From Betaproteobacteria bacterium (lineage in GTDB: Bacteria; Pseudomonadota; Gammaproteobacteria; Burkholderiales; JACQAP01), in contig JBDTRK010000004.1 of NCBI GenBank assembly GCA_039931685.1, positions 426-64,425 of the forward strand: DNA of 64,000 nucleotides, written 5' to 3'. The translations under genes were made by a program, and so were the position numbers. Positions 30,052-57,923 of this stretch are shown in pieces. A model generated the notes under the pieces. That model was given only the letters and a program-made list of their open reading frames with translations, was not told where the DNA came from and made no database searches. How positions within the stretch are numbered: the stretch's first letter is position 1; each line of letters opens with the position of its first letter.

Positions 30052-30861
30052 GGCGGCGCTCGCCGGATCCCATCGGCAGGTGACGTTGCAGGACTGATGA
30101 CAATATCACGCGGGAGGCATGTTTCCGTTCGAGGTTGCGTCGCCTTGCGGCGCATCGACCGCAAATCGAAGTTCATCCGGGCAAGCGTACCGGCGTATCA
30201 GTCCAGCCACAACGCGAGTCTGGAAACGCCGGACCGTGCATCGCAGACCGGCTTGCGATCTTGCGATGCGGCGACCCGACACCTACCGCGGCTTCATGCG
30301 ATGTGAATGCCGCAATTGCAGGTGAAGCGATTCACTTGCACGCCCTTCCCTGCCTCGCCTGCACGGACCGGCCCCCGCATCGGGGCCAGGCCATGAGCTT
30401 GTCAATCGCGCCGACGGGCTCGCCCCTCGACGACGTCCCGCCGTAGTCATCGCCTCTCCCAAAAATTTCGCCAGGCCACTTCGCGTCCGGCCCGGCTCGG
30501 GCGCGCTTTGCGCGACAACGAGTTGAGCCGGGCTGCAGCGCTCAAGTTCCCGATTGCCAACCGCACAGGGTCTGGGACCTTGCCCGGCCGACAACGCTAA
30601 CCCCCTCTCGCACATCAGCAATTTATCGCTCTCGGGACGAACAAGGCGCCCTGTCGTTCAAGCCAGACAGCTTTTTGTGAGCGCAAACAACGGTCTCAAT
30701 GAATATGGGCATCAGTTGTCGCCCTGACACTACATCTCTGTAGTGGTTAATCTACACTCCTCCATCTATCCATCTATTTATAAATGACTTTCTGAAGCGG
30801 CATGCGTCTTGCAGACAGATGCAGTGAAGCAAATTTTGCTCACTCATTTGGAGGTTCGATC

Positions 30862-32229
30862 ATGGACTGCAATATCGCCTTGCCAGTACTTCATAGTAGC
30901 GGTGATCCCGGTGGCTTCATACGTAACAACCCTGAGCGTCACGCTGCAAGTTCTTCGGTCGCCGCCTATCGGACTCGCGCACTTCATTCGGCTTCTGTCG
31001 GGATTCTCCTGGTCGGCATCTCGTTGATCGCCGCGTGCGGGAGCGGCGGCGGCGGCTCGGATGCGAGTGCGGCTGCAGGTAAGAATCGCGGTGGCGGTGG
31101 AACAGCCTCGACGACCGTCCCTAGCACGACACCAACCACAACCCCAACCACAACCCCAACCACTACCCCAACCACTACCCCGACCGGCACCGCTACCACT
31201 CGCGACGTGCTCCAGCAGCCTTTCGCGGTCACCAGCATTTGGAACATGCCGATCGGCAGCAACGCCGTCTATGTGCCCGCAAACATACCGGCGATTCCCT
31301 ACAGCCCGAATGAATGGGCACCGATGCCGGTCATTGACAGGGAAATCATCGTCCTCACGCCGACCGCGCCGCTGACAAATATCTACTACAGCAGCGCGGC
31401 CTGGACCGGAGCCAACCGTTGTGCCCCTACCGGCAGCATGATTTTCCAGTTGCCTATCCCGAGCAACTTTGTCGTCCCCAACGCACCCGGCAATGGAAGC
31501 GCGGCGTTCCTCAAGGCGGATGGACGCACCCTGGTTCAGACGCAGCCGTTTACGCGCTGCACCGCTGGCGCATCGGGAACTTCGCTTACCGACGCGTCCA
31601 GTTTTCCTGAGGTCGATCTCCATGGCGACGGCATCCGCGGTTCTCATGGCGGCTCGGGACTATCGGCAATTGGCGGGTCCATCCGCGTGGGTGAACTGCG
31701 CCCCGGAAGCAAGGGACCGGCACACGCCCTCAAGGTGGCTGTCGACTCGCCACAGGTTCTCTTCGCGTGCACGACCGCCAGCCAGTGTTTCCGTTGGCCG
31801 GCGGATAGAGCCGACGGTGGTGCCGTGGGCTCTTACGGCAGGCTCCGCCCCAGCAACAGCAGCGCAATGAAGATGGGCGCGCTGCTCGCCATCCCGGCCT
31901 CGACGAACCTGTCAAACCTGGGCCTGGAGACGGAACCAGGAAAGCAGCTCGCCTGGACGCTGCAGAACTACGGCGCTTACATCGACGACAGCACGGGCGG
32001 TCCAGCCGTAGTCATCAACGCCGAGGACGGCTATCACGGATCCGTGATAACGCAGTTCCAGAACGATTGGGGCTTCCCGATGGAACAACGCGTGAACAGC
32101 AACTCGCCGTGGTCCCGCGACATGCAACGTTTGATGACGGCGCTTTATGTTGTGGACAATAACAGCCCAACCACCATTGGCGGCGGCGGCACGCCCCTTC
32201 AGCCTCTTGCCGCGGCGTTGAGCAACTGA
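30862..32229 (+). CDS. secreted lipoprotein with Thr/Pro linker and uncharacterised ~330-aa C-terminal domain
   Basis: The ATG at 30862 is preceded by TGGAGG. Signal/lipobox: GILLVGISLIAAC followed by GSGGGG. The linker is (TTTP)n. The C-terminal domain has enzyme-like conserved-looking blocks (HGGSGLSAIGGSIRVGEL, FRWPADRADG) that I cannot assign to a family. Confidence 0.7.
   Translation: MDCNIALPVLHSSGDPGGFIRNNPERHAASSSVAAYRTRALHSASVGILLVGISLIAACGSGGGGSDASAAAGKNRGGGGTASTTVPSTTPTTTPTTTPTTTPTTTPTGTATTRDVLQQPFAVTSIWNMPIGSNAVYVPANIPAIPYSPNEWAPMPVIDREIIVLTPTAPLTNIYYSSAAWTGANRCAPTGSMIFQLPIPSNFVVPNAPGNGSAAFLKADGRTLVQTQPFTRCTAGASGTSLTDASSFPEVDLHGDGIRGSHGGSGLSAIGGSIRVGELRPGSKGPAHALKVAVDSPQVLFACTTASQCFRWPADRADGGAVGSYGRLRPSNSSAMKMGALLAIPASTNLSNLGLETEPGKQLAWTLQNYGAYIDDSTGGPAVVINAEDGYHGSVITQFQNDWGFPMEQRVNSNSPWSRDMQRLMTALYVVDNNSPTTIGGGGTPLQPLAAALSN
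31129..31184 (+). repeat. 12-bp tandem repeat encoding (T-T-T-P)n linker
   Basis: aca cca acc aca acc cca acc aca acc cca acc act acc cca acc act acc ccg acc. About 4.5 in-frame copies of ACN-ACC-CCA-ACC. Confidence 0.9.
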
Positions 32230-32260: not shown

Positions 32261-32480
32261 TCGCGTATTGCTGCGAGGCCATGGTCCGAACGGACTACGC
32301 AGATACAATTGAATCTCGAGCGCCGATGCGGGATAGTAACGACCGGTGTAGTTAAAGCACTACGCTGGAACAGAGTCAGGTGGTCAGCCCGCTGTCAACA
32401 GCCCAGGCAAGCTCGGGCCAGGCAATGTGTAGGCACCTGTGGGTTCACGATGTTGGTTGAATCTGGTGGATGAAGTTCAA

Positions 32481-32513
32481 AAGGGTACACCGACAGGTCG
32501 TACCCTTTTTTTT
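32481..32513 (+). terminator. rho-independent terminator
   Basis: AAGGGTAC-(11-nt loop)-GTACCCTT followed by a run that brings the total to eight T. It lies ~250 nt downstream of the nearest plus-strand stop codon. Confidence 0.6.
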
Positions 32514-32711: not shown

Positions 32712-33533
32712 ATGCAAGCTTGCAGTCAAATTGTGAATAAACTGAATACAGGTTCGCCGCAATCTCCGGAGGTCGCGACGCTGACCGCGGAAGCCGCGTC
32801 GCAACTTGCCGGCGACGCCGTCGAGGTCGTGGTCGCCCGGCTGGACGTGGAGCCGGATGCGGTCAATGCGCTGGCAGGCTGGCTCGATGGCGATGAGCGT
32901 AAGCGGGCGCTTCGCTTTGAATTCGAACGCGACCGCCAGCGATTCATTGTTGCGCGGGGACGCCTGCGGCAATTGCTTGGCGCGCGCCTGGATACCGAAC
33001 CGCAATCGGTCGAGCTGTCGTATGGAACACACGGCAAGCCCGTTCTCGCACACGGATCCGCGGACCAGGACTGGCGCTTCAATGTCTCGCATTCCAGGGA
33101 CGTCGCGGTGTTCGCCTTTTGTCGCGGGCGCGAAGTGGGCATTGACGTCGAAGCGGTCCATTCCGTCCATTGCGCTGACGCCGTTGCGGCGCATTTCTTC
33201 TCGCGCAATGAACTGGAGACGTACCTGGCGCTCGACGAGCCGGACAAGGAGCTGGGTTTCTTCCATTGCTGGACACGCAAGGAAGCGTTCATCAAGGCCC
33301 TTGGCGACGGCCTGCGTTATCCCCTGGACTCTTTCGATGTCTCCCTGTCGCCGCGCGTGCCCGCCAGACTCCTGCGTGTCGGAAATCTGGACGGCAACCA
33401 CTCCGGATGGTACCTGCGCAGCTTCATTCCGACGCCGGGCTATGTCGCAGCGATCGTCATCGAGCGCTCCAGGGCCGCGACCAACGATGCCGCCTTTCTG
33501 AAGGGTCCCGCCTGCAAGCTATGGACGCGATGA
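32712..33533 (+). CDS. Sfp/EntD-type 4'-phosphopantetheinyl transferase
   Basis: GKPVL...FNVSHSRDVAVFAF...VGIDVE and FFHCWTRKEAFIKALG are the canonical PPTase motifs. The stop overlaps the next gene's start. Confidence 0.88.
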   Translation: MQACSQIVNKLNTGSPQSPEVATLTAEAASQLAGDAVEVVVARLDVEPDAVNALAGWLDGDERKRALRFEFERDRQRFIVARGRLRQLLGARLDTEPQSVELSYGTHGKPVLAHGSADQDWRFNVSHSRDVAVFAFCRGREVGIDVEAVHSVHCADAVAAHFFSRNELETYLALDEPDKELGFFHCWTRKEAFIKALGDGLRYPLDSFDVSLSPRVPARLLRVGNLDGNHSGWYLRSFIPTPGYVAAIVIERSRAATNDAAFLKGPACKLWTR

Positions 33534-34717
33534 ATCCGGTCGCCAGTGATCGGCGGCAACCCGTAGTGCCTTCCGGCAGCTATCGCTCCGCATGGATCGA
33601 CGACGAGGTGCGGATGTTCCGCAAGACCGCATCCCAGTTCATCCAGAAGGAATTCGCGCCTCACTATGCCCGCTGGTGCACCCAGCAACGCCCCGATGCC
33701 GACGCCTGGACGAAGGCGGGCGGCGTAGGCCTGCTTCTGCCTGACATTCCCGAAGCGTACGGCGGCGGTGGCGGCACCTTCGCCCATGAAACCGTGGTCC
33801 TGGAGGAACTTGCCCAGGCCGGGATCCAGTTCGGTGCCAGCATCCAGAGCATCGTCGCACACTACATCCTCGCCTACGGCAGGGAAGAGCAGAAACGCCA
33901 TTGGCTTCCCCGTATGGCGCGCGGTGAACTGGTGGCCGCCATCGCCATGAGCGAGCCTTCCGCGGGCTCCGACCTGCAGGGCATCAAGACCACTGCCCGG
34001 CGCGACGGCGACCACTATGTCATCAAAGGTTCGAAGACGTTCGTCACCAACGGCTGGCACGCCGGGATCGTCTGCCTGGCGGTGAAAACCGATCCCGCAA
34101 GCGCCGGCCTGAAAGGACTTTCCCTCGTCATCGTCGAAACGAAAAATCTTCCCGGCTACCACGTCGGGCGCTCGCTCGAAAAGGTCGGCATGCACGCGCA
34201 GGATACCTGCGAGATCTTCTTCGACGACGTGCGCGTGCCGGCCTCGAACCTTCTCGGCGCCGCTGAAGGCAAGGGCTTTTCCCAGATGATGGAGCAACTG
34301 CCCTACGAGCGCCTCACGGTCGGCGTAAGCGCCGTCGCAACAGCGGAGCGTGCGGTCGCCATTACCACCCAATATGTCAAGGACAGAACGGCCTTCAGCA
34401 AGCCGCTCATCGATTTTCAGAATACCCGCTTCCAGCTCGCCCAATGCGTGACCGAAGCGCAGATCGGGCGCGTCTTTCTGGACAACTGCATCGAGCGTTT
34501 CATCGCCGGAGGGCTCGACGACGTTACGACGGCCATGGCGAAGTACTGGCTCACCGAGTGTGAATGCCGCATCGTCGACGCGTGCATGCAGTTGCATGGC
34601 GGTTACGGCGTCATGATGGAGTATCCGATTGCCCGCATGTGGGTCGACAGCCGTGCGCAACGGATCTACGCCGGCACAAATGAAATCATGAAGGAGTTGA
34701 TCGCCTGGTCGTTGTAA
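33521..34717 (+). CDS. acyl-CoA dehydrogenase-family flavoenzyme
   Basis: ACAD N, middle and C regions (AIAMSEPSAGSDLQGIKTTA, GSKTFVTNG, HGGYGVMMEYPIARMWVDSRAQRIYAGTNEIMKELIA). The ATG at 33521 or 33530 overlaps the PPTase stop. The ORF-track start at 33266 lies inside the PPTase gene. Confidence 0.88.
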   Translation: MDAMNPVASDRRQPVVPSGSYRSAWIDDEVRMFRKTASQFIQKEFAPHYARWCTQQRPDADAWTKAGGVGLLLPDIPEAYGGGGGTFAHETVVLEELAQAGIQFGASIQSIVAHYILAYGREEQKRHWLPRMARGELVAAIAMSEPSAGSDLQGIKTTARRDGDHYVIKGSKTFVTNGWHAGIVCLAVKTDPASAGLKGLSLVIVETKNLPGYHVGRSLEKVGMHAQDTCEIFFDDVRVPASNLLGAAEGKGFSQMMEQLPYERLTVGVSAVATAERAVAITTQYVKDRTAFSKPLIDFQNTRFQLAQCVTEAQIGRVFLDNCIERFIAGGLDDVTTAMAKYWLTECECRIVDACMQLHGGYGVMMEYPIARMWVDSRAQRIYAGTNEIMKELIAWSL

Positions 34718-34753
34718 CTGTTTCTCCAAGATGGAACACACGGAAATGAAATC

Positions 34754-37588
34754 ATGAAACGGACGAAAAATACGCAGGACGGATCGACGCACAACGACAT
34801 CCCGCGGTTGCGCATTTTCGACGATGCGAACCGCCAGCGGCCGGCGGATGAATGCAATGACTCGGCGGTAGCTTTTCCCGACAAGGATCTGTGTTTGCAC
34901 GACCTGTTCGAGAAGCAGGCCGCACGAACTCCCGACGCGCTGGCCCTCGTGTACGAGCAGCAAAGGCTGAGCTATCGTGATCTGGCGCAGCGCTCCGACC
35001 AGCTCGCCCGGCAATTGCGCACCTTGGGCGCCGGACCGGATGTGCTCGTCGGGCTGCTGGTCGAGCGTTCGCTTGAGATGGTGGTGGGAATCCTGGGCAT
35101 TCTGAAGGCAGGCGCAGCCTATTTGCCCATTGATCCCGGCTATCCCCAGGAACGGGTCGGCTTCATGCTCGCCGACGCCAATGCCGCGCTGGTCCTCACG
35201 CAAACCAGTTTGCTGCCCTCCCTGCCTGTCGGCACCACGCAGGCCGTATGCCTGGATACCTTCGAATGGAGCGCAGCGGGGGCATCGCCGCGGGACGCAG
35301 TTCACTTCCATCCGCGCAATCTCGCGTACGTGATCTATACGAGCGGTTCCACCGGCCATCCCAAAGGGGTCGGCATCGAACATCGCAACATCGTCAATTA
35401 CGTGTTGGGCGTAGCGCAGCGGCTGCAACTGGAGCCCGGCATGAATTGCGCGACCGTGTCGACCATCGCCGCCGACCTCGGTAACACGGTGATCTTCCCG
35501 GCGCTGGCCACCGGGGGCTGCGTGCACGTCATATCGCAGGAAAGGGCCGAGAACCTGGACTTGCTGGCAGAGTACTTCAGCCGCGAGGCAATCGACGTGC
35601 TGAAGATCGTGCCGTCACATCTCGCGGCATTACAAAGCGGCAGGAATCCCGAGCGGATCATGCCCAGGAAACGTCTCATCCTCGGCGGCGAGGCCTCGCG
35701 GCTCGAATGGATCGCGCAACTGCGCGCGTTGGCGCCCGATTGCGCGATTTACAACCACTACGGCCCCACGGAAACCACCGTAGGGGTACTAACCTATCGT
35801 GTCGGCGCACAGTTGCCGGATACGCCGTCCGGCACACTGCCATTGGGCAAACCCCTGCCGAACAGCTGCATGCACATCCTCGATGCGGGCGGGCAACCCG
35901 TGCCGGTCGGGGATCGGGGCGAGCTCTGCATCGGCGGCAACGGCGTGGCGCGCAGCTATCTGAATCGTGCGGACCTGTCTGCCGCGAAGTTTGTCCGCGA
36001 TCCGTTCAGTCGGGATACCACGGCACGAATATATCGCACCGGTGACCTTGCGCGCTACCTGCCGGACGGAAACATCGAGTTTTGCGGCCGCATCGATGAC
36101 CAGATCAAGTTGAACGGCTATCGGGTCGAACTCGGTGAAATCGAATGCGCGCTGCGCGAACAGGGCGGCGTGCGCGATACCGTCGCACTGGCCCGCGAAG
36201 ACGAGTCAGGCACTCCACAGCTGGTCGCTTACGTGGTGCCGCAGCGGACCAATCAGGCGCTCTGGGGATGCAACCCGATCCATATCCTGCCGGATGGTTC
36301 GCCGATAGCGCATCTGAACAAGAGCGAAACCGACTACATCTATAACGAAATCTTCGTCCTGCAGGCCTACCTGCGGCACGGCATCTCGATACGCGACGGC
36401 GACTGCATCATCGATGCGGGCGCCAACATCGGCCTTTTCACCGTGTTCGCCAGCAGACTGGCCCGTAATGTGCGCATGCTGTCCTTCGAGCCGAATCCTG
36501 CCGCATTTGCCTGCCTGAAGGCCAATGCCGAAGCCTGGGGCACCTCGGTGAAATGCCTGCCGCTGGGATTATCCCGGGAAAACAAATCGGCGGAGCTGAC
36601 ATTTTTCCAGGGGCTTTCGCTGCTGTCCGGGTTTTACGCCGACGCCGCCGTCGAACACGAGATGGTCAAGAATTACGTGCTGAACCAGCAGCCGGACCCG
36701 TCGCAAAGCGAGCAGTCGGCTGCCGATATCGGCGCCTTGATCGATGACCGGCTGCAATCTCGCGTCATAACTGCCCAGCTTCGCACGCTGTCGAGCGTCA
36801 TGGCGGAGGAAGGTATCGACCGTATCGACCTGCTCAAGATCAATGTTGAAAAGAGCGAACTGGACGTGCTGATGGGCATCGGGCGCGACGACTGGGCCAG
36901 GATCCGCCAACTGGTCATCGAAGTGGACCAGAACGCAAACCTCACGCCCATCACCGACCTGCTGGAGCAGCACGGTTTCGAGTACCTCGTCGAACAGGAT
37001 CCGTTGCTGCGGAACACCGAGCTTTGTTACGTGTACGCGATCCAGCCTTCGGATCACGGTCGCCTCGTACGACAACAATCGGCCGATGCCCATCTGCGCG
37101 CGCTGCCAGCCGTCGACGCAGAAATTCTGACGCCCGCGCTTTTGCGCAACCATCTGAAAGCGCGGCTCCCCCGGTACATGATTCCGTCGGCATTCATCCT
37201 GATGGAGAAGTTCCCGTTGACTTCGAACGGCAAGATCGATCGCAAGGCCTTTCCTGCATTCTCCGGCGAGAAATTGGCCCCCGTCCGCGCACTCGCTGCT
37301 CCACAGACCGATACCCAAAGGGAACTCGCGACGATCTGGGCCGAGCTGCTGAAGCTCGACAGTGTGGGCATCGACGACGATTTCTTCGACCTCGGGGGAC
37401 ATTCCTTGCTCGCCATCCGCGCCGTGTCGCGCATACGGGATCGATTCGCGGTGAATCTGTCGCTGCGTAATCTGCTCGAAGCGCCCACGGTGGAAGGGTT
37501 GGCCCGGGTCATCGATGGCTTGTCCTGGCTGAAGCGCTCCAGGAACCCGTCGGATGACACCGGCAATCGGGAGGAAATCGCACTATGA
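34754..37588 (+). CDS. NRPS-like adenylation domain interrupted by an FkbM-type methyltransferase, plus a thiolation (PCP) domain; no condensation domain
   Basis: A-domain cores: LKAGAAYLPIDP, YVIYTSGSTGHPKGV, NHYGPTETTVG, YRTGDLARYLPDGNIEFCGRIDDQIKLNGYRVELGEIE, then LPRYMIPSAF and NGKIDRKAF. About 290 aa are inserted between the last two groups and carry FkbM-like motifs (DCIIDAGANIGLFTVFAS, LSFEPNP, IDLLKINVEKSELDVL). PCP motif FFDLGGHSLLAI. Confidence 0.9.
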   Translation: MKRTKNTQDGSTHNDIPRLRIFDDANRQRPADECNDSAVAFPDKDLCLHDLFEKQAARTPDALALVYEQQRLSYRDLAQRSDQLARQLRTLGAGPDVLVGLLVERSLEMVVGILGILKAGAAYLPIDPGYPQERVGFMLADANAALVLTQTSLLPSLPVGTTQAVCLDTFEWSAAGASPRDAVHFHPRNLAYVIYTSGSTGHPKGVGIEHRNIVNYVLGVAQRLQLEPGMNCATVSTIAADLGNTVIFPALATGGCVHVISQERAENLDLLAEYFSREAIDVLKIVPSHLAALQSGRNPERIMPRKRLILGGEASRLEWIAQLRALAPDCAIYNHYGPTETTVGVLTYRVGAQLPDTPSGTLPLGKPLPNSCMHILDAGGQPVPVGDRGELCIGGNGVARSYLNRADLSAAKFVRDPFSRDTTARIYRTGDLARYLPDGNIEFCGRIDDQIKLNGYRVELGEIECALREQGGVRDTVALAREDESGTPQLVAYVVPQRTNQALWGCNPIHILPDGSPIAHLNKSETDYIYNEIFVLQAYLRHGISIRDGDCIIDAGANIGLFTVFASRLARNVRMLSFEPNPAAFACLKANAEAWGTSVKCLPLGLSRENKSAELTFFQGLSLLSGFYADAAVEHEMVKNYVLNQQPDPSQSEQSAADIGALIDDRLQSRVITAQLRTLSSVMAEEGIDRIDLLKINVEKSELDVLMGIGRDDWARIRQLVIEVDQNANLTPITDLLEQHGFEYLVEQDPLLRNTELCYVYAIQPSDHGRLVRQQSADAHLRALPAVDAEILTPALLRNHLKARLPRYMIPSAFILMEKFPLTSNGKIDRKAFPAFSGEKLAPVRALAAPQTDTQRELATIWAELLKLDSVGIDDDFFDLGGHSLLAIRAVSRIRDRFAVNLSLRNLLEAPTVEGLARVIDGLSWLKRSRNPSDDTGNREEIAL

Positions 37589-38583
37589 ACCTGCAGCCCT
37601 TCCTGGCCGAACTGTACAGTCGCAATATTCAGCTCTGGGCCGACGGCGACCGCCTCAGGTGCAAGGCGCCAACGGGTGTACTCACGACCACCCTGCGCGA
37701 CCAGTTGATAGAGCGCAAGGGCGAGATCCTGGCGCTTCTGCGCAGCGCCGAGGCCGTTTCCAGCCAGCCGCGGGCGATCGTTCCGCTTCAACCGGGGGGC
37801 GATCGCACGCCAATTTTTGCGGTCGCCGGCCACAATGGCGACGTCTTCGCCTATCGCGCCCTGGCGTTCCACCTCGGTAAAGATCAGCCGTTCTTCGCAC
37901 TCGAGCCACCGGGACTCGATGGCGACAGCGAACCGTTGCAGCGGGTCGAGGACCTCGCCGACTATTTTGCCGCGCAGATCCAGGCATTTCAGCCTGACGG
38001 CCCCTACATCATTGCCGGCTATTGCGCGGGCGGCACGATTGCCTTCGAACTGGCCCGCCAGTTACGGGCGCGTGGCGCAACGATCCAGCTTCTGGCCCTG
38101 ATTGCCTCGCCGTACCCGACGTCCTTTCGCGTTGCGGCGCGTATGCAACAGGCTGTCGTGCACCAGGTGGCGCGCATCGTCCGGCATGTCCGTTCGTTGC
38201 GACGGCTGTCATTCCTGGAATCTATTCGGTACATAAGCGCGAAATTTCGCCGGCGCAGTCTACTGCGCGACGCCGAGCACGCTGCATCGCTGGATCCCGT
38301 TCTGGCGCGGCGCGACGACGTGGCGCGCACTACGATTGCGGCGCTGCGCCGTTACACGCCGGAGCGTTATTCCGGGCGTGTAGGCCTTTTGTTGCCCAAC
38401 AGGCAATGGTTGCGCTCAGGCGCCGCCCCCTTGCATTGGCGATCCGTAGCGCCACACGCCGAGCATTACTTCGGTCCGGACGGCTGCAATCCGGACCTCC
38501 TGTTGGTCGATCCGGACGCCCCCGCCATTGCCGATCTGTTCAGGCGGTGCCAGGAAGGCAAGCCGGCGGAGGCCTCGCCGTGA
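37585..38583 (+). CDS. TubC-N-type docking domain fused to a thioesterase with a Cys nucleophile (GYCAG)
   Basis: The N-terminus (FLAELYSRNIQLWADGDRLRCKAPTGVLTTTLRDQLIERKGEILALL) matches the TubC N-terminal docking pattern. The alpha/beta-hydrolase TE has the nucleophile elbow IIAGYCAGGTIAFELA (TGC at 38023-38025). The start overlaps the NRPS stop as ATGA. Confidence 0.8.
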   Translation: MNLQPFLAELYSRNIQLWADGDRLRCKAPTGVLTTTLRDQLIERKGEILALLRSAEAVSSQPRAIVPLQPGGDRTPIFAVAGHNGDVFAYRALAFHLGKDQPFFALEPPGLDGDSEPLQRVEDLADYFAAQIQAFQPDGPYIIAGYCAGGTIAFELARQLRARGATIQLLALIASPYPTSFRVAARMQQAVVHQVARIVRHVRSLRRLSFLESIRYISAKFRRRSLLRDAEHAASLDPVLARRDDVARTTIAALRRYTPERYSGRVGLLLPNRQWLRSGAAPLHWRSVAPHAEHYFGPDGCNPDLLLVDPDAPAIADLFRRCQEGKPAEASP

Positions 38584-38945
38584 ATAGCGTGCGATCGGCG
38601 CACCCAATGCATATTTGCGCGGCATGGCCAGAAGGCACTGCTGCCGCACATCCGGGCATTGCGCATCTCCAAGCGTCCCCGCCTGAGCAGCGCCGTAGAC
38701 CAAATGGACCAGCAGCCCGCGGATCGCCCAGGTACCGCGCTTAACGCTGCATCGCCAGACTATCGACCTATGAGCAAAGAAGAAAATGTGGTCCGGACCC
38801 GTGGCGGCGCCGATCCACCTCGCTTTTTGCGGCAAGCGACGCCGAGCCTGTTCGCCCGGACGGGCCGCGGTGCAATGTGTAATCCAGAGCTCGCGCCTGC
38901 GGTCGATTCATCTGGCGGCGTCATCGCACAGAATTCGATGACGTC

Positions 38946-40100
38946 ATGAAAATCTGCCTGCTCGGCCTGCATAACCTGTCTGTCCTGGCACCGGAATTCA
39001 AAAACCACACTGTGGGTGGCGAACCGGTCCAGCAGACATTGCTGGCAAGGGCGCTCGCGCGTCGAGGGCATGATGTAAGCATGGTCGTTGCTGATTATGG
39101 CCAGGAGGACGACCTGGAATGCAGGGCCATACGACTGTTCAAGGCCTATCGCCTCGATGCGGGCATACCGGTGCTGCGCTTCGTGCATCCCCGCTGGACC
39201 AGATTGTGGTCGGCACTGATGCGGGCGGATGCCGAGCTCTATTACACGAGTTGCGCAGGCATGGAGGTCGGCCTGCTCGCATTGTTCTGCCGGTATTTCG
39301 GCAAACGGTTCGTATTCCGCAGCGCAAGCGATGCGGACTGCGACAAATCGCGCCTGCTCGTCAGACACGCGCGCGATCGTTGGCTCTATGCCTATGGCCT
39401 GCGGCGGGCGGATGCCATCCTGGTACAGAGCGCCTCCCAGGCGCAAGCCTTGTTGCGCAGCTATGGATTGGCGAGCCGGATTGCGGGAATGCTGGTCGAG
39501 CATCCGCGGTCGCCCCCCCCCCATGACCTGGACGTGTTGTGGGTCGGCAACATTCGGGGCGTAAAGAGGCCGGACCGGGTTCTCGAACTTGCAGCGAAAC
39601 TGCCGCAATTCAATTTTCACATGGTCGGGGGCCCCCTGTCCGGCGACGAAGCGCTCTATGAGGCGGTGCGGGATGCGGCAGCGACAAGGACCAATCTGAC
39701 CTTTCATGGCCGCCTGTCGTATGGGGACGCCAACGATCTGTACGATCGGGCAAAGCTGCTGGTCAATACTTCCGATGTGGAGGGTTTTCCGAATTCGTAT
39801 CTGCAGGCCTGGATCCGGGGCGTGCCCGTAGTAACGCTCATCGATCCTGACCGCGTGATTGAGCGCGAAGGTCTGGGCGTCGCTGCAAGTTCACCGGACG
39901 GGCTCTCCAGGGCCATCGGTGCCCTGCTTGGGTCGCCGACAGCCTGGCAGGCGGCCAGCGATCGCTGCAGGTATTTCATGGCGCGGGAATTCGGCGAAGA
40001 TAAAATTCTGACCGCCTACCTTGAGACATTCGATGACGTCATGCGGTCCCGACCGCCCAACGCCCGGAATTTCCCGACAAGCGAGGCACCCCGTGCCTGA
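38946..40100 (+). CDS. GT4-family (group 1) glycosyltransferase
   Basis: MKICLLGLH...GGEPVQQTLLARALARRGHDVSMVV, with a C-terminal GT-B region (NTSDVEGFPNSYLQAWIRGVPVV). It contains the C10 tract. Confidence 0.85.
   Translation: MKICLLGLHNLSVLAPEFKNHTVGGEPVQQTLLARALARRGHDVSMVVADYGQEDDLECRAIRLFKAYRLDAGIPVLRFVHPRWTRLWSALMRADAELYYTSCAGMEVGLLALFCRYFGKRFVFRSASDADCDKSRLLVRHARDRWLYAYGLRRADAILVQSASQAQALLRSYGLASRIAGMLVEHPRSPPPHDLDVLWVGNIRGVKRPDRVLELAAKLPQFNFHMVGGPLSGDEALYEAVRDAAATRTNLTFHGRLSYGDANDLYDRAKLLVNTSDVEGFPNSYLQAWIRGVPVVTLIDPDRVIEREGLGVAASSPDGLSRAIGALLGSPTAWQAASDRCRYFMAREFGEDKILTAYLETFDDVMRSRPPNARNFPTSEAPRA
39513..39522 (+). repeat. homopolymeric C10 tract inside the GT4 coding sequence
   Basis: tcg ccc ccc ccc cat encodes S-P-P-P-H. 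I counted ten consecutive C directly in the sequence. Confidence 0.95.
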
Positions 40101-41190
40101 GACCCCTTTCATCATCACGGTCGATACGGAGGGCGACAATCTCTGGGAAAAACCACGAGAAATTACCACCCGCAATGCGGCCTACCTGCCTCGCTTCCAG
40201 TTGCTCTGTGAGCGGTTCCACTTCAAACCTGTCTATCTGGTGAATTATGAAATGGCGATGTCGGACGTATTTGTCGAGTTCGGACGCGATGTCGTATCCC
40301 GCGGTGCCGGCGAAATCGGCATGCATCTGCACGCCTGGAACTCGCCGCCGCTTGAGCCGCTGACCCGCGACGATTTCTTTCATCAACCCTTTCTGATCGA
40401 GTACCCGGACCGGATCATGAGCGAAAAAATCCACACCATGACCCATCTGCTCGAGCACAAGTTCGATCGCAAAATGATCAGCCATCGCGCGGGGCGCTGG
40501 GCGTTCGACGGCCGGTATGCGGCGATGCTGATCGACGAGGGTTATCTGGTCGACTGCTCCGTGACGCCGGGCGTCGACTGGAGCGCCACACCGGGTGATC
40601 CGGAGGGCAATGGCGGCACGGACTACACTTCATTTCCCGACAGCCCATACTTACTCAGCCCGGTCGATATTTCGGTTGCGTCAGCCGGACCAATGCTCGA
40701 GGTGCCCATGACGGTCTTTGCGAGCAAACTCTTCCAACATTCGCCCTGGGTTTATCGGGTGCCCGGTTTGGCCCGGGCCGCCCGGCGAATATCTCCGCAG
40801 CGACGCTGGCTGTGCCCGGTTGCACTTCTGGAAAAGCACAACCACGATGCCATGCTGCAACTCGCCCGCAGAGCACGCGATGAACCTCCGACCCATATGG
40901 AATTCATGCTGCACTCCTCGGATCTCATGCCGGGCGGCAGCCCGAGCTTCAAGAACGCATCAGACATCGACGGTTTGTACGATCGCCTGGAAACGCTGTT
41001 CGACAAATTATCAATGTGGTGCCGCGGGATGACGCTCGCGGAGTTCCGGGAACACTGGATGAAGGCGCCGAATAAAACGCGATTAATCGGGCTCGGCGAA
41101 CAGCAAAGCAATCGGGTGGCCAGATCAATGGAAGTGAGAAAGTCCACGACCGGCCCGGCCCCGGTGGAAAAAGGCAGCGTACCGGGATGA
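40093..41190 (+). CDS. polysaccharide deacetylase-like / glycoside hydrolase-deacetylase barrel superfamily protein
   Basis: FIITVDTEGDNLW...GMHLHAWNSPP...EFMLHSSDLMPG resembles CE4-like barrel proteins from EPS loci. GTG at 40093 overlaps the GT4 stop by 8 nt; ATG at 40021 is an alternative. The family call is moderate. Confidence 0.55.
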   Translation: MPETPFIITVDTEGDNLWEKPREITTRNAAYLPRFQLLCERFHFKPVYLVNYEMAMSDVFVEFGRDVVSRGAGEIGMHLHAWNSPPLEPLTRDDFFHQPFLIEYPDRIMSEKIHTMTHLLEHKFDRKMISHRAGRWAFDGRYAAMLIDEGYLVDCSVTPGVDWSATPGDPEGNGGTDYTSFPDSPYLLSPVDISVASAGPMLEVPMTVFASKLFQHSPWVYRVPGLARAARRISPQRRWLCPVALLEKHNHDAMLQLARRARDEPPTHMEFMLHSSDLMPGGSPSFKNASDIDGLYDRLETLFDKLSMWCRGMTLAEFREHWMKAPNKTRLIGLGEQQSNRVARSMEVRKSTTGPAPVEKGSVPG

Positions 41191-41975
41191 TCCGCATCGA
41201 GGGGACGGGCGCGATTTACGGGGAAGTATGGTACGACGAAGAACCGCCCCGGAATTCCGGAGTGGATATCGTCCGCTATCGCTGCAGACACGCCGCTATC
41301 GCGAATGCCCGCCATTCTCCGTTTCTGTCGTTGGTCACGGATCTTTGCGCAGAGGCCAATGCCATCGCCGACCAGTTCGGCAAGGATTGCCGGTACAAAG
41401 TCCGGCGCGCCGACACGAAGGATGAACTGGACACGGAATTCATCCTGGAACCGGAGAACCGGCTGGACGAATTCGGCGAATTCTTCGACACGTTCGCTCG
41501 TCAAAAGGGGCATGAAGCCTGCGATCGGCAATGGTTGCGCGCTGCATGCAAAGCCCGCCAGCTCGTCCTCACGACGGCGACCCGGCACGGCGAGGCGCTG
41601 GTGTGGCACGCCTATGTCATCGCTGGAAATTCGACCTGGTTGCAGTACACCGGATCCTGTTTCCGCAATCGAGAAAGCGATTACCGCGCCCTCGTCGGCC
41701 GGGCCAATCGTTGGCTGCACTGGAAAGACATGCTGCGGTTCAAGGAACTGGGAATGCTCCGCTATGACTGGGGCGGAATGTTCGAGGACGAATCGACCCC
41801 GGACCGCGCCGGGATCAACGAATTCAAAAGAACCTTTGGCGGACGGCTTGCGCGAACTTACGATTGCACGGTCCCGGTGACCCTCAAAGGCCGGATCTAT
41901 CTTCCGCTTCGCGACGCGTGGCGCAGCCGAAAGACCATTCTTCCCGGCCGAAAAGAAGTTGCCGCAGGAGCCTGA
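41187..41975 (+). CDS. FemAB-like / GNAT-fold (Acetyltransf_6-like) protein
   Basis: 262 aa. KDCRYKVRRA..., WHAYVIAGNSTWLQYTGS..., ANRWLHWKDMLRFKELGMLRYDWGG and INEFKRTFGG resemble FemAB-family / BioF2-like N-acyltransferases found in PEP-CTERM-type EPS loci. The start overlaps the upstream stop as ATGA. Confidence 0.55.
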   Translation: MIRIEGTGAIYGEVWYDEEPPRNSGVDIVRYRCRHAAIANARHSPFLSLVTDLCAEANAIADQFGKDCRYKVRRADTKDELDTEFILEPENRLDEFGEFFDTFARQKGHEACDRQWLRAACKARQLVLTTATRHGEALVWHAYVIAGNSTWLQYTGSCFRNRESDYRALVGRANRWLHWKDMLRFKELGMLRYDWGGMFEDESTPDRAGINEFKRTFGGRLARTYDCTVPVTLKGRIYLPLRDAWRSRKTILPGRKEVAAGA

Positions 41976-41981: not shown

Positions 41982-42806
41982 TCAGGGAAGAATCCCTTGC
42001 AGCCGCCCCGCGGACACCGCGCGCGGCGTCACGCCGCGGATCACGCGGGCGTGAATGACCGATGAGGGCTTTCCGAAAGCAGAGTGATAGTTGGCGAGTT
42101 TGAGGTAGCAACCCTGGTCCGGATATAGCGTAGGCCCGCGGTATGCCATCTTCCGCGCGCCATTGACCCATGCATCGAAAAAGCCATCGGCTTGCGATGT
42201 CCACTTCACGTGGTAAATGAAGTGGTACCAGACATTCTTCACGACCGGGCCGATGGGCGCGTTGTAGAGCGTCGGCCTGACCTGGTTGCCGTAAGCGATC
42301 TGGAAACTGAGGCCGGTAGGACGGTCGGGCGATGCCGCGCTGGCGGGCATCGCGTTCACCTGGAAATTGGCCTGTCCGCCACCGGGTCTGGCATTGTGGA
42401 AATCGGCGACGACGCCCCAGTTCCACGAAGACGCCGTGCTTTCGGGCGGGTCAACGTAGTCGGCGGGGAACAGAATCGAGTGTGCCCACCAGGCCTCTTT
42501 GCCCTCGTAGCAGTCGGTCGTCGCCTGGTCGAGGGTAAGATCGTTGCGCTCGGCGGCGCGGCTTCCATAAATGCTGCTGTCTCCAGGTTCCGTATGCAGG
42601 CGCACGCCGCGCATTCCGGCGACATCCACGAGCGACGCGCGGCCCGCCACTTTCGACTGTTCTGCGAATCCGCAATCCTTTGGCGAGCTCTCGAATAAAC
42701 AGGAAAATTCGATACTGGGCACCGCGATCTCCCGAACGTTCCTGTCGGCAGCCGACACGACCAAAACGAGCGTGAGCAAGAAGGCTGCAAGAAATTTCGA
42801 GCGCAT
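41982..42806 (-). CDS. secreted polysaccharide lyase-like jelly-roll protein
   Basis: Signal peptide MRSKFLAAFLLTLVLVVSA. Blocks RAAERNDL, WWAHSILFPADY, VVADFHN, GFFDAWVNG and YLKLANYH resemble the 'Polysaccharide lyase' (heparin lyase I / glucuronan lyase-like) family. ATG at 42806; the ORF-track start is 43049. Confidence 0.65.
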   Translation of the reverse strand: MRSKFLAAFLLTLVLVVSAADRNVREIAVPSIEFSCLFESSPKDCGFAEQSKVAGRASLVDVAGMRGVRLHTEPGDSSIYGSRAAERNDLTLDQATTDCYEGKEAWWAHSILFPADYVDPPESTASSWNWGVVADFHNARPGGGQANFQVNAMPASAASPDRPTGLSFQIAYGNQVRPTLYNAPIGPVVKNVWYHFIYHVKWTSQADGFFDAWVNGARKMAYRGPTLYPDQGCYLKLANYHSAFGKPSSVIHARVIRGVTPRAVSAGRLQGILP

Positions 42807-42823
42807 GACATCTTGCCGGCTAA

Positions 42824-43687
42824 CTAGATTTTCTCCGCATGGACGATGCGGTGCCAACCCCAGCGCCGCCCCAACGCCCGACGGCAGCTTTCCGGCAACA
42901 GGCGGCCCAACGCCCCCCAGTGCCGGTAATCGAAGAAATAAACCTCGTTGCCCGTCATCCTGAATGCCGACAGCAGCGCTTGCGCTTCTTCCGCGCCATA
43001 CACCCGGGAATAAGGGTTGTCCGGTCCATCGGTGTTCCGGCTCAGCCACTCGTCATCTTTCATTTTCCCGTCCTGCCTCGCCAGTTCCCGGTGACGCTCG
43101 ATCTTGCGTCGAGGAAAGCCCATGCGCTCCAGGCATGCAATCGCGCCCGGCACTGACAGGACGCGCAGTGCCGCTTTGCGCAAAAAACCGGATTTCAACG
43201 ACGTAGTTGATCGACGTGCGGTTGTACAGCATCGCCAGCAACTTGCCCCGGGGATTGAGAACGCGATGAATTTCTGCGACGGCCTTTTCCACTTCGGGAA
43301 TATGGTGCAGCACGTCGAACGTGCCATCCGGGAAATCAAGGGAAGTCGCATCGCCTTGCAACGCGACGCCAGGGAGCGAAAAGGCCCGCAATGCCTGCAA
43401 CGTCGCCTCGGTCGACGCCCGATCGACATTGAGCCTGTGTAGACGCCTCCCCGTCCAATGATGGTGCGCGCGCCAGAACCCACCCCGGACCCGATCTCGA
43501 GAACGCGCTTGCCACGCCAGTCGATCTTCGAGATCACATCGAGGATGTGAGGCTGAAGGTCGTAACGCTGACGCTCGATATCCAGAAAGTATTCCCGCCA
43601 CAACCGGTTCTGGTCGCTCAGATCCGAATCACACGGCCTGCCGTCCCAATACTGCCGGACCTGCTCTTGAGCTAATGCGCTATTCAT
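42824..43687 (-). pseudogene. class I SAM-dependent methyltransferase whose central part is encoded in another reading frame (two frameshifts)
   Basis: The frame of ORF 42824..43879 gives a good N-terminus (VLEIGSGVGSGARTIIGRGGVYTG) and C-terminus (LRKAALRVL...WLSRNTDGPDNPYSRVYGAEEAQALL). Between them are ~83 aa of R/C/S-rich nonsense. The missing core (LNVDRASTEATLQALRAF...DFPDGTFDVLHHIPEVEKAVAEIHRVLNPRGKLLAMLYN) is read in the frame of ORF 43053..43601. The switch points are near 43431-43437 and at the A6 run 43182-43187. Confidence 0.7.
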
Positions 43688-45426
43688 TACCTGAGCACTC
43701 CCATCCCAATTTGCACGCTCTGCCCGCTCGTTGGCGCCAGGATGAATGTGCTGCCGCCTTCGAGTACGTGTCCGGACAATCGGGAATCCAGTGACAGCGC
43801 CCCATCCGCGGCGACGGAGTAGTATCCGCTGCCGGATGTCGCGCTCGATACGCCGCCTTTGTTCCGCGTTCCCGACCAACTGTAGTTACCTGCACCATCA
43901 AAGACGATCGACCGCACCTCACTGTTGAACGCATACAAGGGGAACGGAACATCGAGGCTATTGATGTACGGGGTATTGGGAATATTGATATTGATCGTAT
44001 TGGCCGGCCCGGCCGTGGCATCCGAATAGTGGTAGGCGACAGCATAGCGGCCACCGAGGCTGGCGTTACTGAACGTGCCGCCCTTCCTCAAGCCCACACC
44101 CATCTCGACTTTCCCGCCCGGTGTGGCAAGGATGAATGCGCTGGCGCCGGCAAGCACATTCCCGGCTAGTCCCGTATCCAGCGTCAGGGTTCCGTCCGTC
44201 GCGAGCACGTAAGTTCCGCTGCCCGACGCAGGGCTCGAGTTCCCACTCGTGTTGCGGGTTCCCGACCATGTGTAGTTTCCCGCGCCGTCGAACGTCATCG
44301 TGCGCAGTTCGCTGCTCAGCGCGTACCCGGGAAACGGAACGGCGAAAGTATTGTTGTACGGTGTCTTGGTCACATTGAGGTTGATCGTGCCTGGAGGCCC
44401 GACGGTGGCGTCGGAATAGTAGAGCGCGACGGCGTAGCTGCCGTTGAAACTGGCATTGTTGAACGTTCCACCTTTTTTTACGCCCATGCCCATTTCTATG
44501 ACCGGCACCCCGGCAGTTGATGCGAGGACGAATGTACTTCCGCCTGCAAGCACGGTCCCGACGACGCCGAAGTCCAGCGCCACCGTACCATCGGCGGTAA
44601 CGGTGTACTGTCCGTTGCCCGATACCGGCGTCGTTGTTCCGGCAACGTTGCGGATTGCCGTCCACGAATAATTGCCTGCTCCGTCAAACGTGACGGTGCC
44701 TTGTTCGACCCTGAACGCATACTCGGGGAAAGGCACATTGACCAGGCTGCTGTACGGCGTACCGGGAACGTTGAGGTCGATTTGGACCGACGGCCCAAAT
44801 CTGGCGTCGAGCATCGAGAAGTTAAAGGCGTAGTCGCCGAAAAGGGTGGCCAGCGTATAGCCGGCCACCCCGAACCTGCCGAAGTGCGAGGTCTGTGCGG
44901 TAACTGTGTCCTGAATGGTGTCTCGTGCAACGGTGCGCAGCGTTTCATTGGCCGTGCCGCTGCCAATCGAGACAATCTTCAAGGTTGTCGGGTCACTGAT
45001 GCCGTTGGAAGCCAGGTACTGCGGCGAGTAGCGCAGCGTCACGGATACCGGGACGGCAAAGACCTCTCCGGCCGGCCCCAATTCGGCGACCAGCACATCG
45101 GCGGGCAGGCCGGTTGCGCCGGATACCTGACTAATCGTGATCTTGGTGGGATTGGACAACGCACCCGCCGGAATCACGACTTGGGTCCCTATGATCGGCG
45201 AGGATGCATCCGTTACCGCAACCGTTCCTCCGGCCGAATCGATGACCTGGCTGGCGATTACGGTGGCGCCCGATCCCGGTGTCGTCCCCGAATCCGTGGC
45301 ACTCCCGCCGCCGCCGCCGCATGCGGCCAATGCCACCAGGGCCGCACATGACACGATGATCTTGAATGAGGTCTCGATGATTTTTCTCGTCCTGAATGGC
45401 AATAATGGGTCCGGTCCTGATCCCAC
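43687..45426 (-). CDS. lipoprotein with three ~130-aa tandem repeats
   Basis: Lipoprotein signal IIVSCAALVALAAC followed by GGGGGS. After an N-terminal ~150-aa domain there are three repeats (aa ~190-318, 319-448 and 449-579). Each contains ...PFP-Y-A-...FDGAGNY(S/T)W...G-G-Y-V-ADG-L-LD...G-VL-GG-S-F-L...EMG-G. No family was recognised. Confidence 0.8.
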   Translation of the reverse strand: MGSGPDPLLPFRTRKIIETSFKIIVSCAALVALAACGGGGGSATDSGTTPGSGATVIASQVIDSAGGTVAVTDASSPIIGTQVVIPAGALSNPTKITISQVSGATGLPADVLVAELGPAGEVFAVPVSVTLRYSPQYLASNGISDPTTLKIVSIGSGTANETLRTVARDTIQDTVTAQTSHFGRFGVAGYTLATLFGDYAFNFSMLDARFGPSVQIDLNVPGTPYSSLVNVPFPEYAFRVEQGTVTFDGAGNYSWTAIRNVAGTTTPVSGNGQYTVTADGTVALDFGVVGTVLAGGSTFVLASTAGVPVIEMGMGVKKGGTFNNASFNGSYAVALYYSDATVGPPGTINLNVTKTPYNNTFAVPFPGYALSSELRTMTFDGAGNYTWSGTRNTSGNSSPASGSGTYVLATDGTLTLDTGLAGNVLAGASAFILATPGGKVEMGVGLRKGGTFSNASLGGRYAVAYHYSDATAGPANTININIPNTPYINSLDVPFPLYAFNSEVRSIVFDGAGNYSWSGTRNKGGVSSATSGSGYYSVAADGALSLDSRLSGHVLEGGSTFILAPTSGQSVQIGMGVLR

Positions 45427-45477
45427 GAAGCATCAAGTCCGGCTGGGTCGTGAATGCCCCGGTATCGGCATCAACCG

Positions 45478-49101: not shown

Positions 49102-49135
49102 CGGGTTTCCTAAATAATCGCGTTGGCTTGTTGCA

Positions 49136-55720: not shown

Positions 55721-55729
55721 GACCCTGGC

Positions 55730-57914: not shown

Positions 57915-57923
57915 GCGGATACC

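Follow-up and report, generated by a model that had tools for sequence, protein, structure and literature searches.

What would an assembly line of non-ribosomal peptide synthetase (NRPS) type without any condensation (C) domain be making at the head of a run of exopolysaccharide (EPS) genes? The question is raised by a 64,000-nucleotide (nt) stretch from a Betaproteobacteria bacterium (assembly GCA_039931685.1, contig JBDTRK010000004.1), hereafter the window, in which four consecutive genes encode a phosphopantetheinyl transferase (PPTase), an acyl-CoA dehydrogenase (ACAD) family enzyme, a single NRPS module with adenylation (A), methyltransferase (MT) and thiolation (T) domains, and a thioesterase (TE). 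The reading preferred here, to which we give an even chance, is that this stand-alone, condensation-free cassette makes a masked, dehydrogenated aspartyl unit that is delivered to a polysaccharide pathway, where we infer that it would serve as a decoration or an anchor of the polymer.

Anatomy of the cassette

The cassette consists of the following genes, given with the evidence for each assignment.

32712–33533, forward strand: Sfp/HetI-type 4'-phosphopantetheinyl transferase (Pfam)
33530–34717, forward strand: ACAD family flavoenzyme resembling long-chain acyl-CoA dehydrogenase (LCAD) (Pfam, PDB sequence matches)
34754–37588, forward strand: single NRPS module A(MT)-T, 944 amino acids (aa) (Pfam, NCBIfam, motifs)
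37585–38583, forward strand: free-standing TE with TubC-type docking domain, 332 aa (Pfam, alignments, AlphaFold2, Foldseek)

In profile searches, all four proteins score above curated thresholds, in line with the first-pass annotation, which had named a PPTase, an ACAD, an A domain with an FkbM-type MT and a T domain, and a docking TE. The same searches bear out the overall anatomy: one NRPS module and no condensation step, accompanied by a PPTase of its own, an ACAD and a docked TE. The absence of a C domain from the window, also claimed there, stands: profiles found none, a tblastn search with the C domain of a relative matched the C–A linker only, and the HHxxxDG motif is absent from all six frames. 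No MbtH-like gene was found in the window coding frames, and none of the cassette proteins falls under a curated NCBIfam equivalog. The genes had further been described as coupled by overlapping stop and start codons, which is the case at two of the three junctions, where PPTase and ACAD (33530–33533) and A(MT)-T and TE (37585–37588) overlap in an ATGA, whereas ACAD and A(MT)-T lie 36 nt apart with no overlap.

The comparisons below draw on more than 100 loci from a scan of species-representative genomes, 11 examinations of gene context and a metagenome scan with the TE profile. The metagenome contig scan gave at least 600 matched stretches, and among the matches listed 535 encode a relative.

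An aspartate-coded module with an embedded methyltransferase

The predicted substrate can be read from the A(MT)-T protein, whose domains are arranged as follows.

aa 1–50: C–A linker remnant
aa 52 to about 500 (nt 34907–36253): A core
aa 554–744 (nt 36413–36985): FkbM/type II O-methyltransferase insert (Methyltransf_21/FkbM, 60 bits)
aa 793–827: AMP-binding_C, the remainder of the A subdomain
aa 857–920 (nt 37322–37513): T domain with the serine of GGHSL (PP-binding, 62.5 bits)
nt 37565–37585: C-terminal docking tail, ...NREEIAL

The A domain scores 278 bits against AMP-binding and 416.5 bits against TIGR01733 (cut-off 317.4), and the motifs YTSGSTGHPKG, YRTGD, GRIDDQIK and NGKIDR are all present. 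The first-pass annotation had proposed extracting the specificity residues of this domain. Anchoring the ten positions on the motifs FDxS, NxYGPTE, GGE and NGKxDR gives the code DLTKIGHVGK, the positions following what we take to be the PheA numbering, together with the motifs, rather than an alignment to 1AMU. The pattern DLTK[IV]GHVGK is invariant in the best 120 database homologues and in 35 loci. For the valine form, DLTKVGHVGK, the NRPSpredictor2 call is Asp and the code matches that of the OH-Asp of tistrellabactin (PMC10391617), while a survey of 2051 A domains assigns it mostly to Asp (PMC12283262). The window code thus reads as aspartate, a specificity predicted from the code, and as Asp235 is present the substrate would be an alpha-amino acid.

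The MT is inserted between motifs a8 (GRIDDQIK, aa 445) and a10 (NGKIDR, aa 825), and its SAM motif is DAGANIG; the form D[AV]G[AS]N[IV]G is found in 119 of 120 homologues, as the sum of the five commonest forms listed. Type II M domains carry the motif DVGx(N/H)xG, belong to interrupted-A family 2a and include that of KtzH, which O-methylates a tethered Ser (PMC8341866). Since the insert is positioned between a8 and a9 and DAGANIG fits this motif, the architecture is of a known kind (family 2a, KtzH-type). The substrate is another matter: family 2a is defined by a Ser/Thr hydroxyl, and here the code reads Asp, a pairing of code and type II M domain that, judged from these motifs, is not what family 2a is described for. 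Because the code reads as Asp rather than Ser/Thr, the likely target of methylation would be a carboxylate.

Side-chain variants among docking-TE loci

A clue to the role of the inserted domain comes from loci that share the docking TE and differ in the A domain. Thirty-five of them combine the Asp code with an FkbM insert, while seven show the Asn code in full (DLTK[IV]GEVGK) and lack an FkbM insert. In six of these seven, and in L162 where the code is partly readable, an insert of ~330 aa with a PP-loop (SGGKDS) replaces the MT. These sister cassettes, all from soil metagenomes (L122, L130, L133, L155, L156, L158 and L162), keep the order PPTase, ACAD, A-T and docking TE wherever the contig extends far enough upstream. 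The remaining variant, L090, has the Asn code without any insert. In L155, the gap between the A core and A_C is about 330 aa, and its insert, the one that was scanned, is a member of the WbuX family of N-acetyl-sugar amidotransferases (E 7e-39). In CysH and albicidin, the AMDH domain either isomerises tethered Asn or converts it by dehydration to beta-cyano-alanine (PMC7966384), and the L155 insert fits the description of that domain.

Taken together, Asp with an MT, Asn with a PP-loop insert and Asn without an insert imply that every variant would end with a neutral beta-substituent. The simplest reading of this correlation is that the job of the inserted domain is to provide that substituent (methyl ester, nitrile/amidine or amide), and that the ACAD acts on the tethered Asp/Asn skeleton.

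The same data bear on whether the MT could instead methylate a beta-oxygen, introduced by a hydroxylase encoded elsewhere or by the ACAD step, to give a beta-methoxy-aspartyl or enol-ether unit with the remaining scheme unchanged. It would agree with the documented action of type II M domains on hydroxyls, such as Ser in KtzH (PMC8341866), and with the observation that DLTKVGHVGK modules often end as OH-Asp (PMC10391617, PMC12283262). Cystobactamid CysH, CysJ and CysQ likewise make beta-methoxy-Asn on a stand-alone module (PMC7966384), and genes for oxygenases of the Cupin_8/JmjC type are found close to the cassette in L083 and L089 and after the TE in L088 and L091. Yet the window locus and most loci of its type are without a hydroxylase gene, and the split between Asp with MT and Asn with a PP-loop insert or none points to the side-chain carbonyl as the site, so we see only a slim chance that the beta-oxygen is methylated.

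The PPTase and an ACAD that follows the Asp/Asn code

The PPTase matches Pfam ACPS (61 bits) and the N-terminal AASDHPPT_N (46 bits), both above cut-off, and reaches 160 of the 370 bits set for the HetI equivalog model, below cut-off. Its orthologues are 53–71% identical and lie upstream of the ACAD in related loci; as they align only from about residue 13–38, the true start may be downstream of the one given.

The ACAD contains all three Pfam ACAD domains (N, M and C; 84–144 bits), and its best PDB matches are a Geobacillus ACAD (2pg0, 370 bits) and human LCAD (325 bits), with AnaB at 150 bits. The Glu of its PYER motif aligns with that of PQER in LCAD, and at the position of the catalytic-base Glu of the medium-chain enzyme (MCAD) it has Ala, where LCAD has Gly. 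Judging from these residues, the protein looks competent as an LCAD-type dehydrogenase. The first-pass annotation had compared it to the enzymes that oxidise prolyl thioesters on carrier proteins; the analogy is a functional one only, as the sequence is LCAD-like and falls below the cut-offs for RedW (210 of 650 bits) and PigA (184 of 500 bits), which places the ACAD outside the known group of aminoacyl-carrier dehydrogenases as far as sequence can tell. Its distribution nevertheless follows the A-domain code: an ACAD is found in all 44 Asp/Asn-coded docking-TE loci scored (43 complete loci and L171, in which the upstream sequence is cut off) and is absent from 8 of 8 docking-TE loci with Gly, Thr or other codes. 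From this pattern, the enzyme appears dedicated to tethered Asp/Asn derivatives.

The similarity to long-chain ACADs, seen in the scores against 2pg0 and human LCAD, could alternatively mean that the enzyme oxidises a fatty acyl-CoA or acyl-acyl carrier protein (ACP). The product would then be a lipoamino acid of the N-acyl-aspartate type, N-acylated by the GNAT/FemX-like protein encoded downstream (see below), and would provide the polysaccharide or sorted surface proteins with a membrane anchor or primer. It would fit that the relative P0087 retains a complete N-terminal C domain (HHIVCDG), that an exosortase gene adjoins one relative (L085), and that a fatty-acyl ligase and an ACP lie beside the ACAD of an Acinetobacter baumannii analogue. 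We nonetheless consider both the lipid product and its anchoring role improbable: the window contains no fatty-acyl ligase, separate ACP or active C domain, the C domains of fused EPS-linked relatives are C-terminal halves without the His motif, and the ACAD tracks the Asp/Asn code and side-chain masking, not any lipid gene.

A docking thioesterase with two cysteines

The TE combines a docking domain (TubC_N, 69 bits, aa 6–53), for which PDB matches to AerJ and TubC were obtained, with a match of 95.6 bits to Thioesterase PF00975 that covers the N-terminal half of the profile only. In the AlphaFold2 model (pLDDT 88), aa ~65–325 adopt a type I TE fold, and the top Foldseek matches are the TEs of Skyxy, NocB, AB3403, GbnD6 and Vlm2, with a probability of 1.0 to Skyxy, NocB, AB3403 and EntF. 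The best PDB sequence match is AB3403 (GWCFGG), with an E value of 3e-17. The family comprises 1146 clusters at 90% identity (E <= 1e-10).

Residue conservation was assessed in alignments of 13 and 58 sequences. The nucleophile, Cys147 (GYCAGG), is always Cys in the 58-sequence alignment (G[YHF]CAGG), and His83 and Asp86 in the GHNGD loop, His201 in the lid and Cys301 are also invariant. In relatives whose TE domain is fused to A(MT)-T, the canonical His stands at the position aligned with Cys301 (VPGHQQNLL versus GPDGCNPDLL). With Cys147 as nucleophile, Cys301 at the His position and no Asp after beta5, the classical Ser-His-Asp triad is therefore absent. A Cys nucleophile preserves the energy of the thioester. 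Aminoacyl shuttles, among them SyrC, CmaE and CysB, typically have one, and it also occurs in the releasing TEs of AB3403 and ObiF. CysB is an aminoacyl shuttle of the alpha/beta-hydrolase type (PMC7966384).

The A(MT)-T donor proteins share a conserved tail, REEI[AE]L. Short C-terminal motifs of this kind are bound by beta-hairpin docking domains, and, judging from the two sequences, the TubC_N domain probably brings the TE to the T domain by way of this tail.

Recurrence beside polysaccharide genes

More than 40 metagenomic loci contain the cassette, with PPTase, ACAD, A(MT)-T and docking TE kept as a block (ACAD 68–85%, A(MT)-T 64–87% and TE 50–80% identical). Its carriers are mostly uncultured Burkholderiales, Gemmatimonadales and soil contigs without a studied representative; an A(MT)-T orthologue (P0061, 69% identical) is present in Georgfuchsia toluolica. 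Nearly all single-module cassettes with sufficient sequence downstream lie next to polysaccharide genes, as seen in the window and about 25 further loci, or roughly 15 after removal of near-duplicates. These loci belong to Burkholderiales, Gemmatimonadales (L006) and unassigned soil contigs, and the neighbours are a trio of GT4, CE4-like and FemX-like genes and/or genes for UDP-glucose dehydrogenase (UGDH), Asn synthase, a lyase, a heparinase-like protein, GT2/GT4 glycosyltransferases and Wzy_C proteins. The first-pass annotation had raised, against its own reading, the possibility of an independent mobile small-molecule cluster that accompanies EPS genes in this genome only; this does not apply, as the single-module form stands beside polysaccharide genes in many independent loci that differ in their gene sets.

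The association extends to rearranged relatives. In L085, an ACAD and an A(MT)-T-TE fusion adjoin UGDH, exosortase and FemAB-like genes, while in L086 a PPTase, a remnant-C-A(MT)-T-TE fusion and an ACAD adjoin Bac_transf, Polysacc_deac_1, GT2 and Asn synthase genes. In L090, a GT2 gene is inserted inside the cassette itself. The N-terminal "Condensation" domains of the fused variants P0062 and P0119 comprise the C-terminal half only and lack HHxxxDG, and hence present no conflict with a condensation-free line. Two apparent fusions, of ACAD and NRPS in L002 and of PPTase and ACAD in L005, were rejected as artefacts of open reading frames (ORFs) in high-GC sequence, since the tblastn frames differ.

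A search of the full-text literature found no description of the cassette or of NRPS genes in exosortase/EPS loci, which agrees with its earlier designation as an undescribed variant.

The downstream trio and the surrounding polysaccharide genes

Three genes follow the cassette on the same strand and are linked to each other by ATGA overlaps.

38946–40100, forward strand: GT4 glycosyltransferase, first of the coupled downstream trio (Pfam)
40096–41190, forward strand: protein with a predicted CE4/NodB-like (ArnD-like) fold (AlphaFold2 and Foldseek)
41187–41975, forward strand: half-size FemX-like (GNAT-fold) transferase, 262 aa (Acetyltransf_6 below cut-off, FemX PDB match)

They had been annotated as GT4, deacetylase-like and FemAB-like; the first name is backed by Pfam, the second by the predicted fold only, and the match behind the third is below cut-off. 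The GT4 protein matches Glyco_trans_1_4, Glycos_transf_1 and Glyco_transf_4, and its orthologues, 65–89% identical, come after the TE in many loci.

The CE4-like protein gave no sequence match in Pfam (including Polysacc_deac_1), NCBIfam or PDB. It has 5096 relatives at E <= 1e-5, a few of which are named "deacetylase" by NCBI, and its homologues have invariant D10, E12, D14, H77, H79, H130, R131 and H273. Its AlphaFold2 model (pLDDT 79) matches ArnD (8t0j) in Foldseek with an E value of 4e-8 and TM scores of 0.49 (query) and 0.64 (target), followed by the putative polysaccharide/peptidoglycan deacetylases 3rxz, 3qbu and 1z7a (E to 1e-6, TM about 0.5–0.64). ArnD is the deformylase of undecaprenyl-phosphate-Ara4FN, a lipid-linked sugar. 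Based on the modelled fold, the CE4-like protein is proposed to be a de-N-acylase that unmasks a sugar amine.

The FemX-like protein reaches 19.4 bits (E 1.2e-3) against Acetyltransf_6, below the cut-off of 22, and over aa 38–239 has PDB matches at E 1e-3 to FemX (1xf8) and others, corresponding to the C-terminal GNAT domain of FemX only; its length of 262 aa compares with about 335 aa for FemX. Its orthologues show weak or faint matches to Acetyltransf_6 and FemAB, and the gene is found together with the cassette in many loci. From these matches, it is proposed to be an (amino)acyl transferase acting on the unmasked amine.

Beyond the trio, a larger group of polysaccharide genes converges on the cassette.

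41982–57457, reverse strand: convergent polysaccharide gene set (Pfam, NCBIfam)

This set encodes a polysaccharide lyase, a 579-aa protein of unknown kind, a GT4, a UGDH and a heparinase II/III-like protein, and further an Asn-synthase-type amidotransferase, two more GT4 proteins and a polytopic membrane protein. Also to the right of the cassette are a Wzy_C protein and a chain-length-regulator-type ATPase that is cut by the window end. The genes of the convergent set also flank the cassette in L001, L008, L009, L010, L082, L087, L094 and L098–L102.

The first-pass annotation had set the module beside EPS loci of the exosortase-A type. No exosortase (Exosortase_EpsH) was detected among the window ORFs profiled, the EPS cluster running past the window end, and no coding frame of the window has a PEP-CTERM tail. 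The XrtA-associated models are below cut-off (TIGR03108 with 504 of 817 bits for the amidotransferase, PEP_O_lig_1 with 55 of 188 for the Wzy_C protein and ligase_PEP_1 with 209 of 592 for the A domain). The "exosortase-A" label is therefore not established for the window.

GC content is about 61% in the window and falls to about 0.50 at 57900–61500. This island encodes, all on the reverse strand, a PMT_2/GT-C-type membrane glycosyltransferase (57924–59351), a small GtrA-like membrane protein judged by eye (59970–60380) and a GT2 (60377–61411), and looks like a horizontally acquired Gtr-like glycan-modification module within the EPS cluster.

Proposed pathway

In the pathway proposed here, the PPTase would convert the T domain to the holo form, an act predicted from the domains observed. 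The A domain would then activate L-aspartate, as its code suggests, and attach it to the T domain, where the embedded KtzH-type O-methyltransferase would most likely turn the tethered beta-carboxylate into a neutral methyl ester, in keeping with the pattern of Asp with and Asn without an MT. From its co-occurrence with Asp/Asn codes, the ACAD would desaturate C-alpha/C-beta of the tethered thioester to give a dehydro-aspartyl (enamine/imine) unit. The TE would dock through its beta-hairpin domain on the ...REEIAL tail, take the unit on Cys147 and offload it, a predicted chemistry.

For the steps on the glycan, synteny suggests that the coupled GT4 would add an N-acetylated amino sugar, from which the CE4/ArnD-fold enzyme would strip the N-acyl group, and that either the FemX-like transferase or the Cys-TE would place the modified aspartyl unit on the freed amine. 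The most likely acceptor in the single-module, glycan-linked form is thus an amino sugar. The more specific proposal, that a non-proteinogenic dehydro-aspartyl unit with a masked side chain (ester, nitrile/amidine or amide according to the variant) is installed on an EPS amino sugar by the Cys-TE and/or by a FemX-like transferase that uses a carrier thioester in place of aminoacyl-tRNA, and that this constitutes an undescribed route of glycan aminoacylation, is put forward tentatively, as something possible but doubtful.

Observations against the pathway and a freely released product

Several observations weigh against delivery of an aspartyl unit to a polysaccharide. FemX-type enzymes normally use aminoacyl-tRNA, not carrier-protein thioesters. 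The ACAD is nearest to fatty-acyl LCADs, not to known aminoacyl-carrier dehydrogenases, and every biochemical step is a predicted one. Type II M domains are documented on Ser/Thr hydroxyls, not on carboxylates (PMC8341866). The linkage to polysaccharide genes also has exceptions: L003 has 5 kb of downstream sequence without such genes, L010 is without the downstream trio, and several Asn-type loci (L155) are without recognisable EPS genes. In the window itself, an untranslated spacer of 362 nt (38584–38945) parts the cassette from the GT4 trio, while in orthologous loci only about 5–80 nt lie between TE and GT4 genes; neither an Rfam match nor a consensus for a terminator or promoter turned up in the spacer.

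Relatives of the cassette and of its TE occur, moreover, in longer assembly lines. In L002, L143, L148 and L150, the cassette lies on ORFs of multi-module length with no homologues of the window EPS genes. L150, the one among these that was profiled, is a two-module line (PPTase, ACAD, A(MT)-T-C-A-T, docking TE) in a conventional small-molecule cluster, where it neighbours genes for an ABC exporter, three kinases of the APH type and two glycosyltransferases of the GT28 type. In L081, an A(MT)-T module without an ACAD opens a multi-module line. The docking-TE clade also ends combined polyketide synthase (PKS)-NRPS lines in L088 and L091, which run C-A-T-C-T, KS-AT-T-aminotransferase, C-A(Gly)-T and TE, followed by the Cupin_8/JmjC gene, with Gly as the code of the last module; there (also in L118) the TE is about 60% identical and keeps Cys147, His201 and Cys301. 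In L091, heparinase-like and Rsb/STAS stressosome-like genes are also present 3' of the TE.

As the cassette opens the L150 line and the docking TE ends those of L088 and L091, a free small-molecule product has to be considered for the window as well. The TE would then simply hydrolyse the thioester to release a diffusible non-proteinogenic amino acid (e.g., dehydro-aspartate beta-methyl ester) or its keto hydrolysis product, with a role as signal, biofilm factor or antimetabolite. The cassette would be co-located and co-regulated with the EPS genes and leave the polymer unmodified. The gap before the GT4 trio would be compatible with this, as would the A. baumannii cluster A1S_0112-0119, whose product is the small metabolite Ac-505 and which has an effect on motility and biofilm formation. 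Yet no exporter lies beside the cassette in the window (30–43.5 kb profiled) or in the profiled EPS-adjacent single-module loci, the adjacency to glycan genes persists across gene orders, fusions and EPS sets and includes the GT2 gene within the L090 cassette, and no obvious role is left for the proposed de-N-acylase and the FemX-like transferase that recur beside the cassette. A free product in any of these functions is on this evidence rather unlikely.

Boundaries and genes to the left of the cassette

The 5' end of the cassette is marked by a candidate terminator.

32480–32513, forward strand: hairpin resembling an intrinsic terminator, AAAGGGTAC...GTACCCTTT and then a T run (read by eye from the sequence)

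This hairpin is predicted to end the upstream unit and to set the 5' boundary of the cassette transcription unit. It was not listed by the consensus terminator scan because its loop is long, and the scan of the locus for promoter and terminator consensus gave background level. Rfam at E <= 0.1 over 30–43.5 kb returned no match.

Directly upstream of the cassette, 30802–32229 (forward strand) encodes a predicted secreted protein of 475 aa with a Gly-rich stretch and TTPTTTP repeats, which has no family match and no homologue in the related loci compared. Farther left are signalling genes, two-component regulators and a 2896-aa cyclic beta-1,2-glucan synthase (13931–22621, reverse strand) with GH94 catalytic, supersandwich and GT2 domains, flanked by Crp-family regulators. 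Signalling genes are dense at 7–8798, encoding a PocR-domain hybrid kinase, a KaiC-like double ATPase, RsbRD_N/RsbU_N kinases, a GAF-GGDEF cyclase and a LuxR-type response regulator. In L009 and L087, the cassette is likewise preceded by genes for a LuxR-type regulator and a hybrid kinase that resemble those at 24.7–30 kb of the window.

Significance

In many soil and water bacteria known only from uncultured material, the cassette stands at the head of EPS genes, and this arrangement hints at an undescribed decoration of sugar polymers or at a small biofilm-linked molecule. Should the product end on the polysaccharide, NRPS machinery would supply substituents of matrix polymers, and this could partly account for unexplained floc and biofilm chemistry in soil and wastewater. 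Such a route of glycan aminoacylation would, if true, be widespread and distinct from D-alanylation of the Dlt type. Even with a free product, the loci would constitute a natural experiment in side-chain masking (O-MT with Asp, PP-loop insert with Asn, or no insert), with an ACAD apparently dedicated to Asp/Asn and a TE clade in which Cys occupies the nucleophile position as well as that of the canonical His.

Comparison with known systems

Each part of the cassette belongs to a known kind. What has not been found described is the combination: an Asp-coded, C-free module interrupted by an O-MT, an LCAD-like ACAD, a docked TE with Cys at both positions and a recurrent embedding among polysaccharide genes.

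Compared by architecture and motif, module 4 of KtzH in kutzneride biosynthesis (PMC8341866) resembles the cassette in having an MT between a8 and a9 that acts in cis on a T-bound residue, whereas the cassette has an Asp code, no C domain and a pairing with an ACAD and a docked TE. CysH of cystobactamid and Alb04 of albicidin (PMC7966384) are alike in loading Asn/Asp and remodelling the side chain through an A-domain insert; CysH is in addition stand-alone, and its product is passed on by the alpha/beta-hydrolase CysB (PMC7966384). The cassette, in contrast, has no downstream NRPS line, always includes an ACAD, carries an O-MT instead of an AMDH domain and has glycan genes as neighbours.

The closest studied analogue is AB3403 (PDB 4zxh), encoded in the A. 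baumannii cluster A1S_0112–A1S_0119 that makes Ac-505 and is linked to biofilm formation. Both systems include a PPTase, an ACAD, one NRPS module and a Cys-TE (GWCFGG versus GYCAGG). The A. baumannii cluster differs in its active C domain, fused TE, acyl-CoA ligase, free ACP and RND pump, in lacking an MT and glycan genes, and in yielding a free lipopeptide-like metabolite; neither an acyl ligase nor an ACP was found among the profiled neighbours of the window cassette. PltE, RedW, PigA and AnaB, like the window ACAD, are flavoenzymes of the ACAD family encoded beside an A domain and a carrier protein, yet they oxidise a prolyl thioester, while the window substrate would be an acyclic Asp derivative.

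Carrier-based activation within EPS loci is also known from the XrtA-associated set of ligase, ACP, PLP-dependent decarboxylase and hydrolase (TIGR03098–03101), which likewise involves alpha/beta-hydrolases. The cassette differs from this set in its true amino-acid adenylation domain, and has no decarboxylase and no exosortase found in the window. Transfer of an amino acid to a glycan without a C domain has a precedent in the Dlt system, in which DltA and DltC deliver carrier-bound D-alanine to teichoic acids, but the cassette is without a DltB or DltD homologue. Finally, SyrC and CmaE move an amino acid between carriers via a Cys thioester on an alpha/beta-hydrolase, and compared with these proteins and CysB, the window TE is distinguished by its type I TE fold joined to a docking domain.

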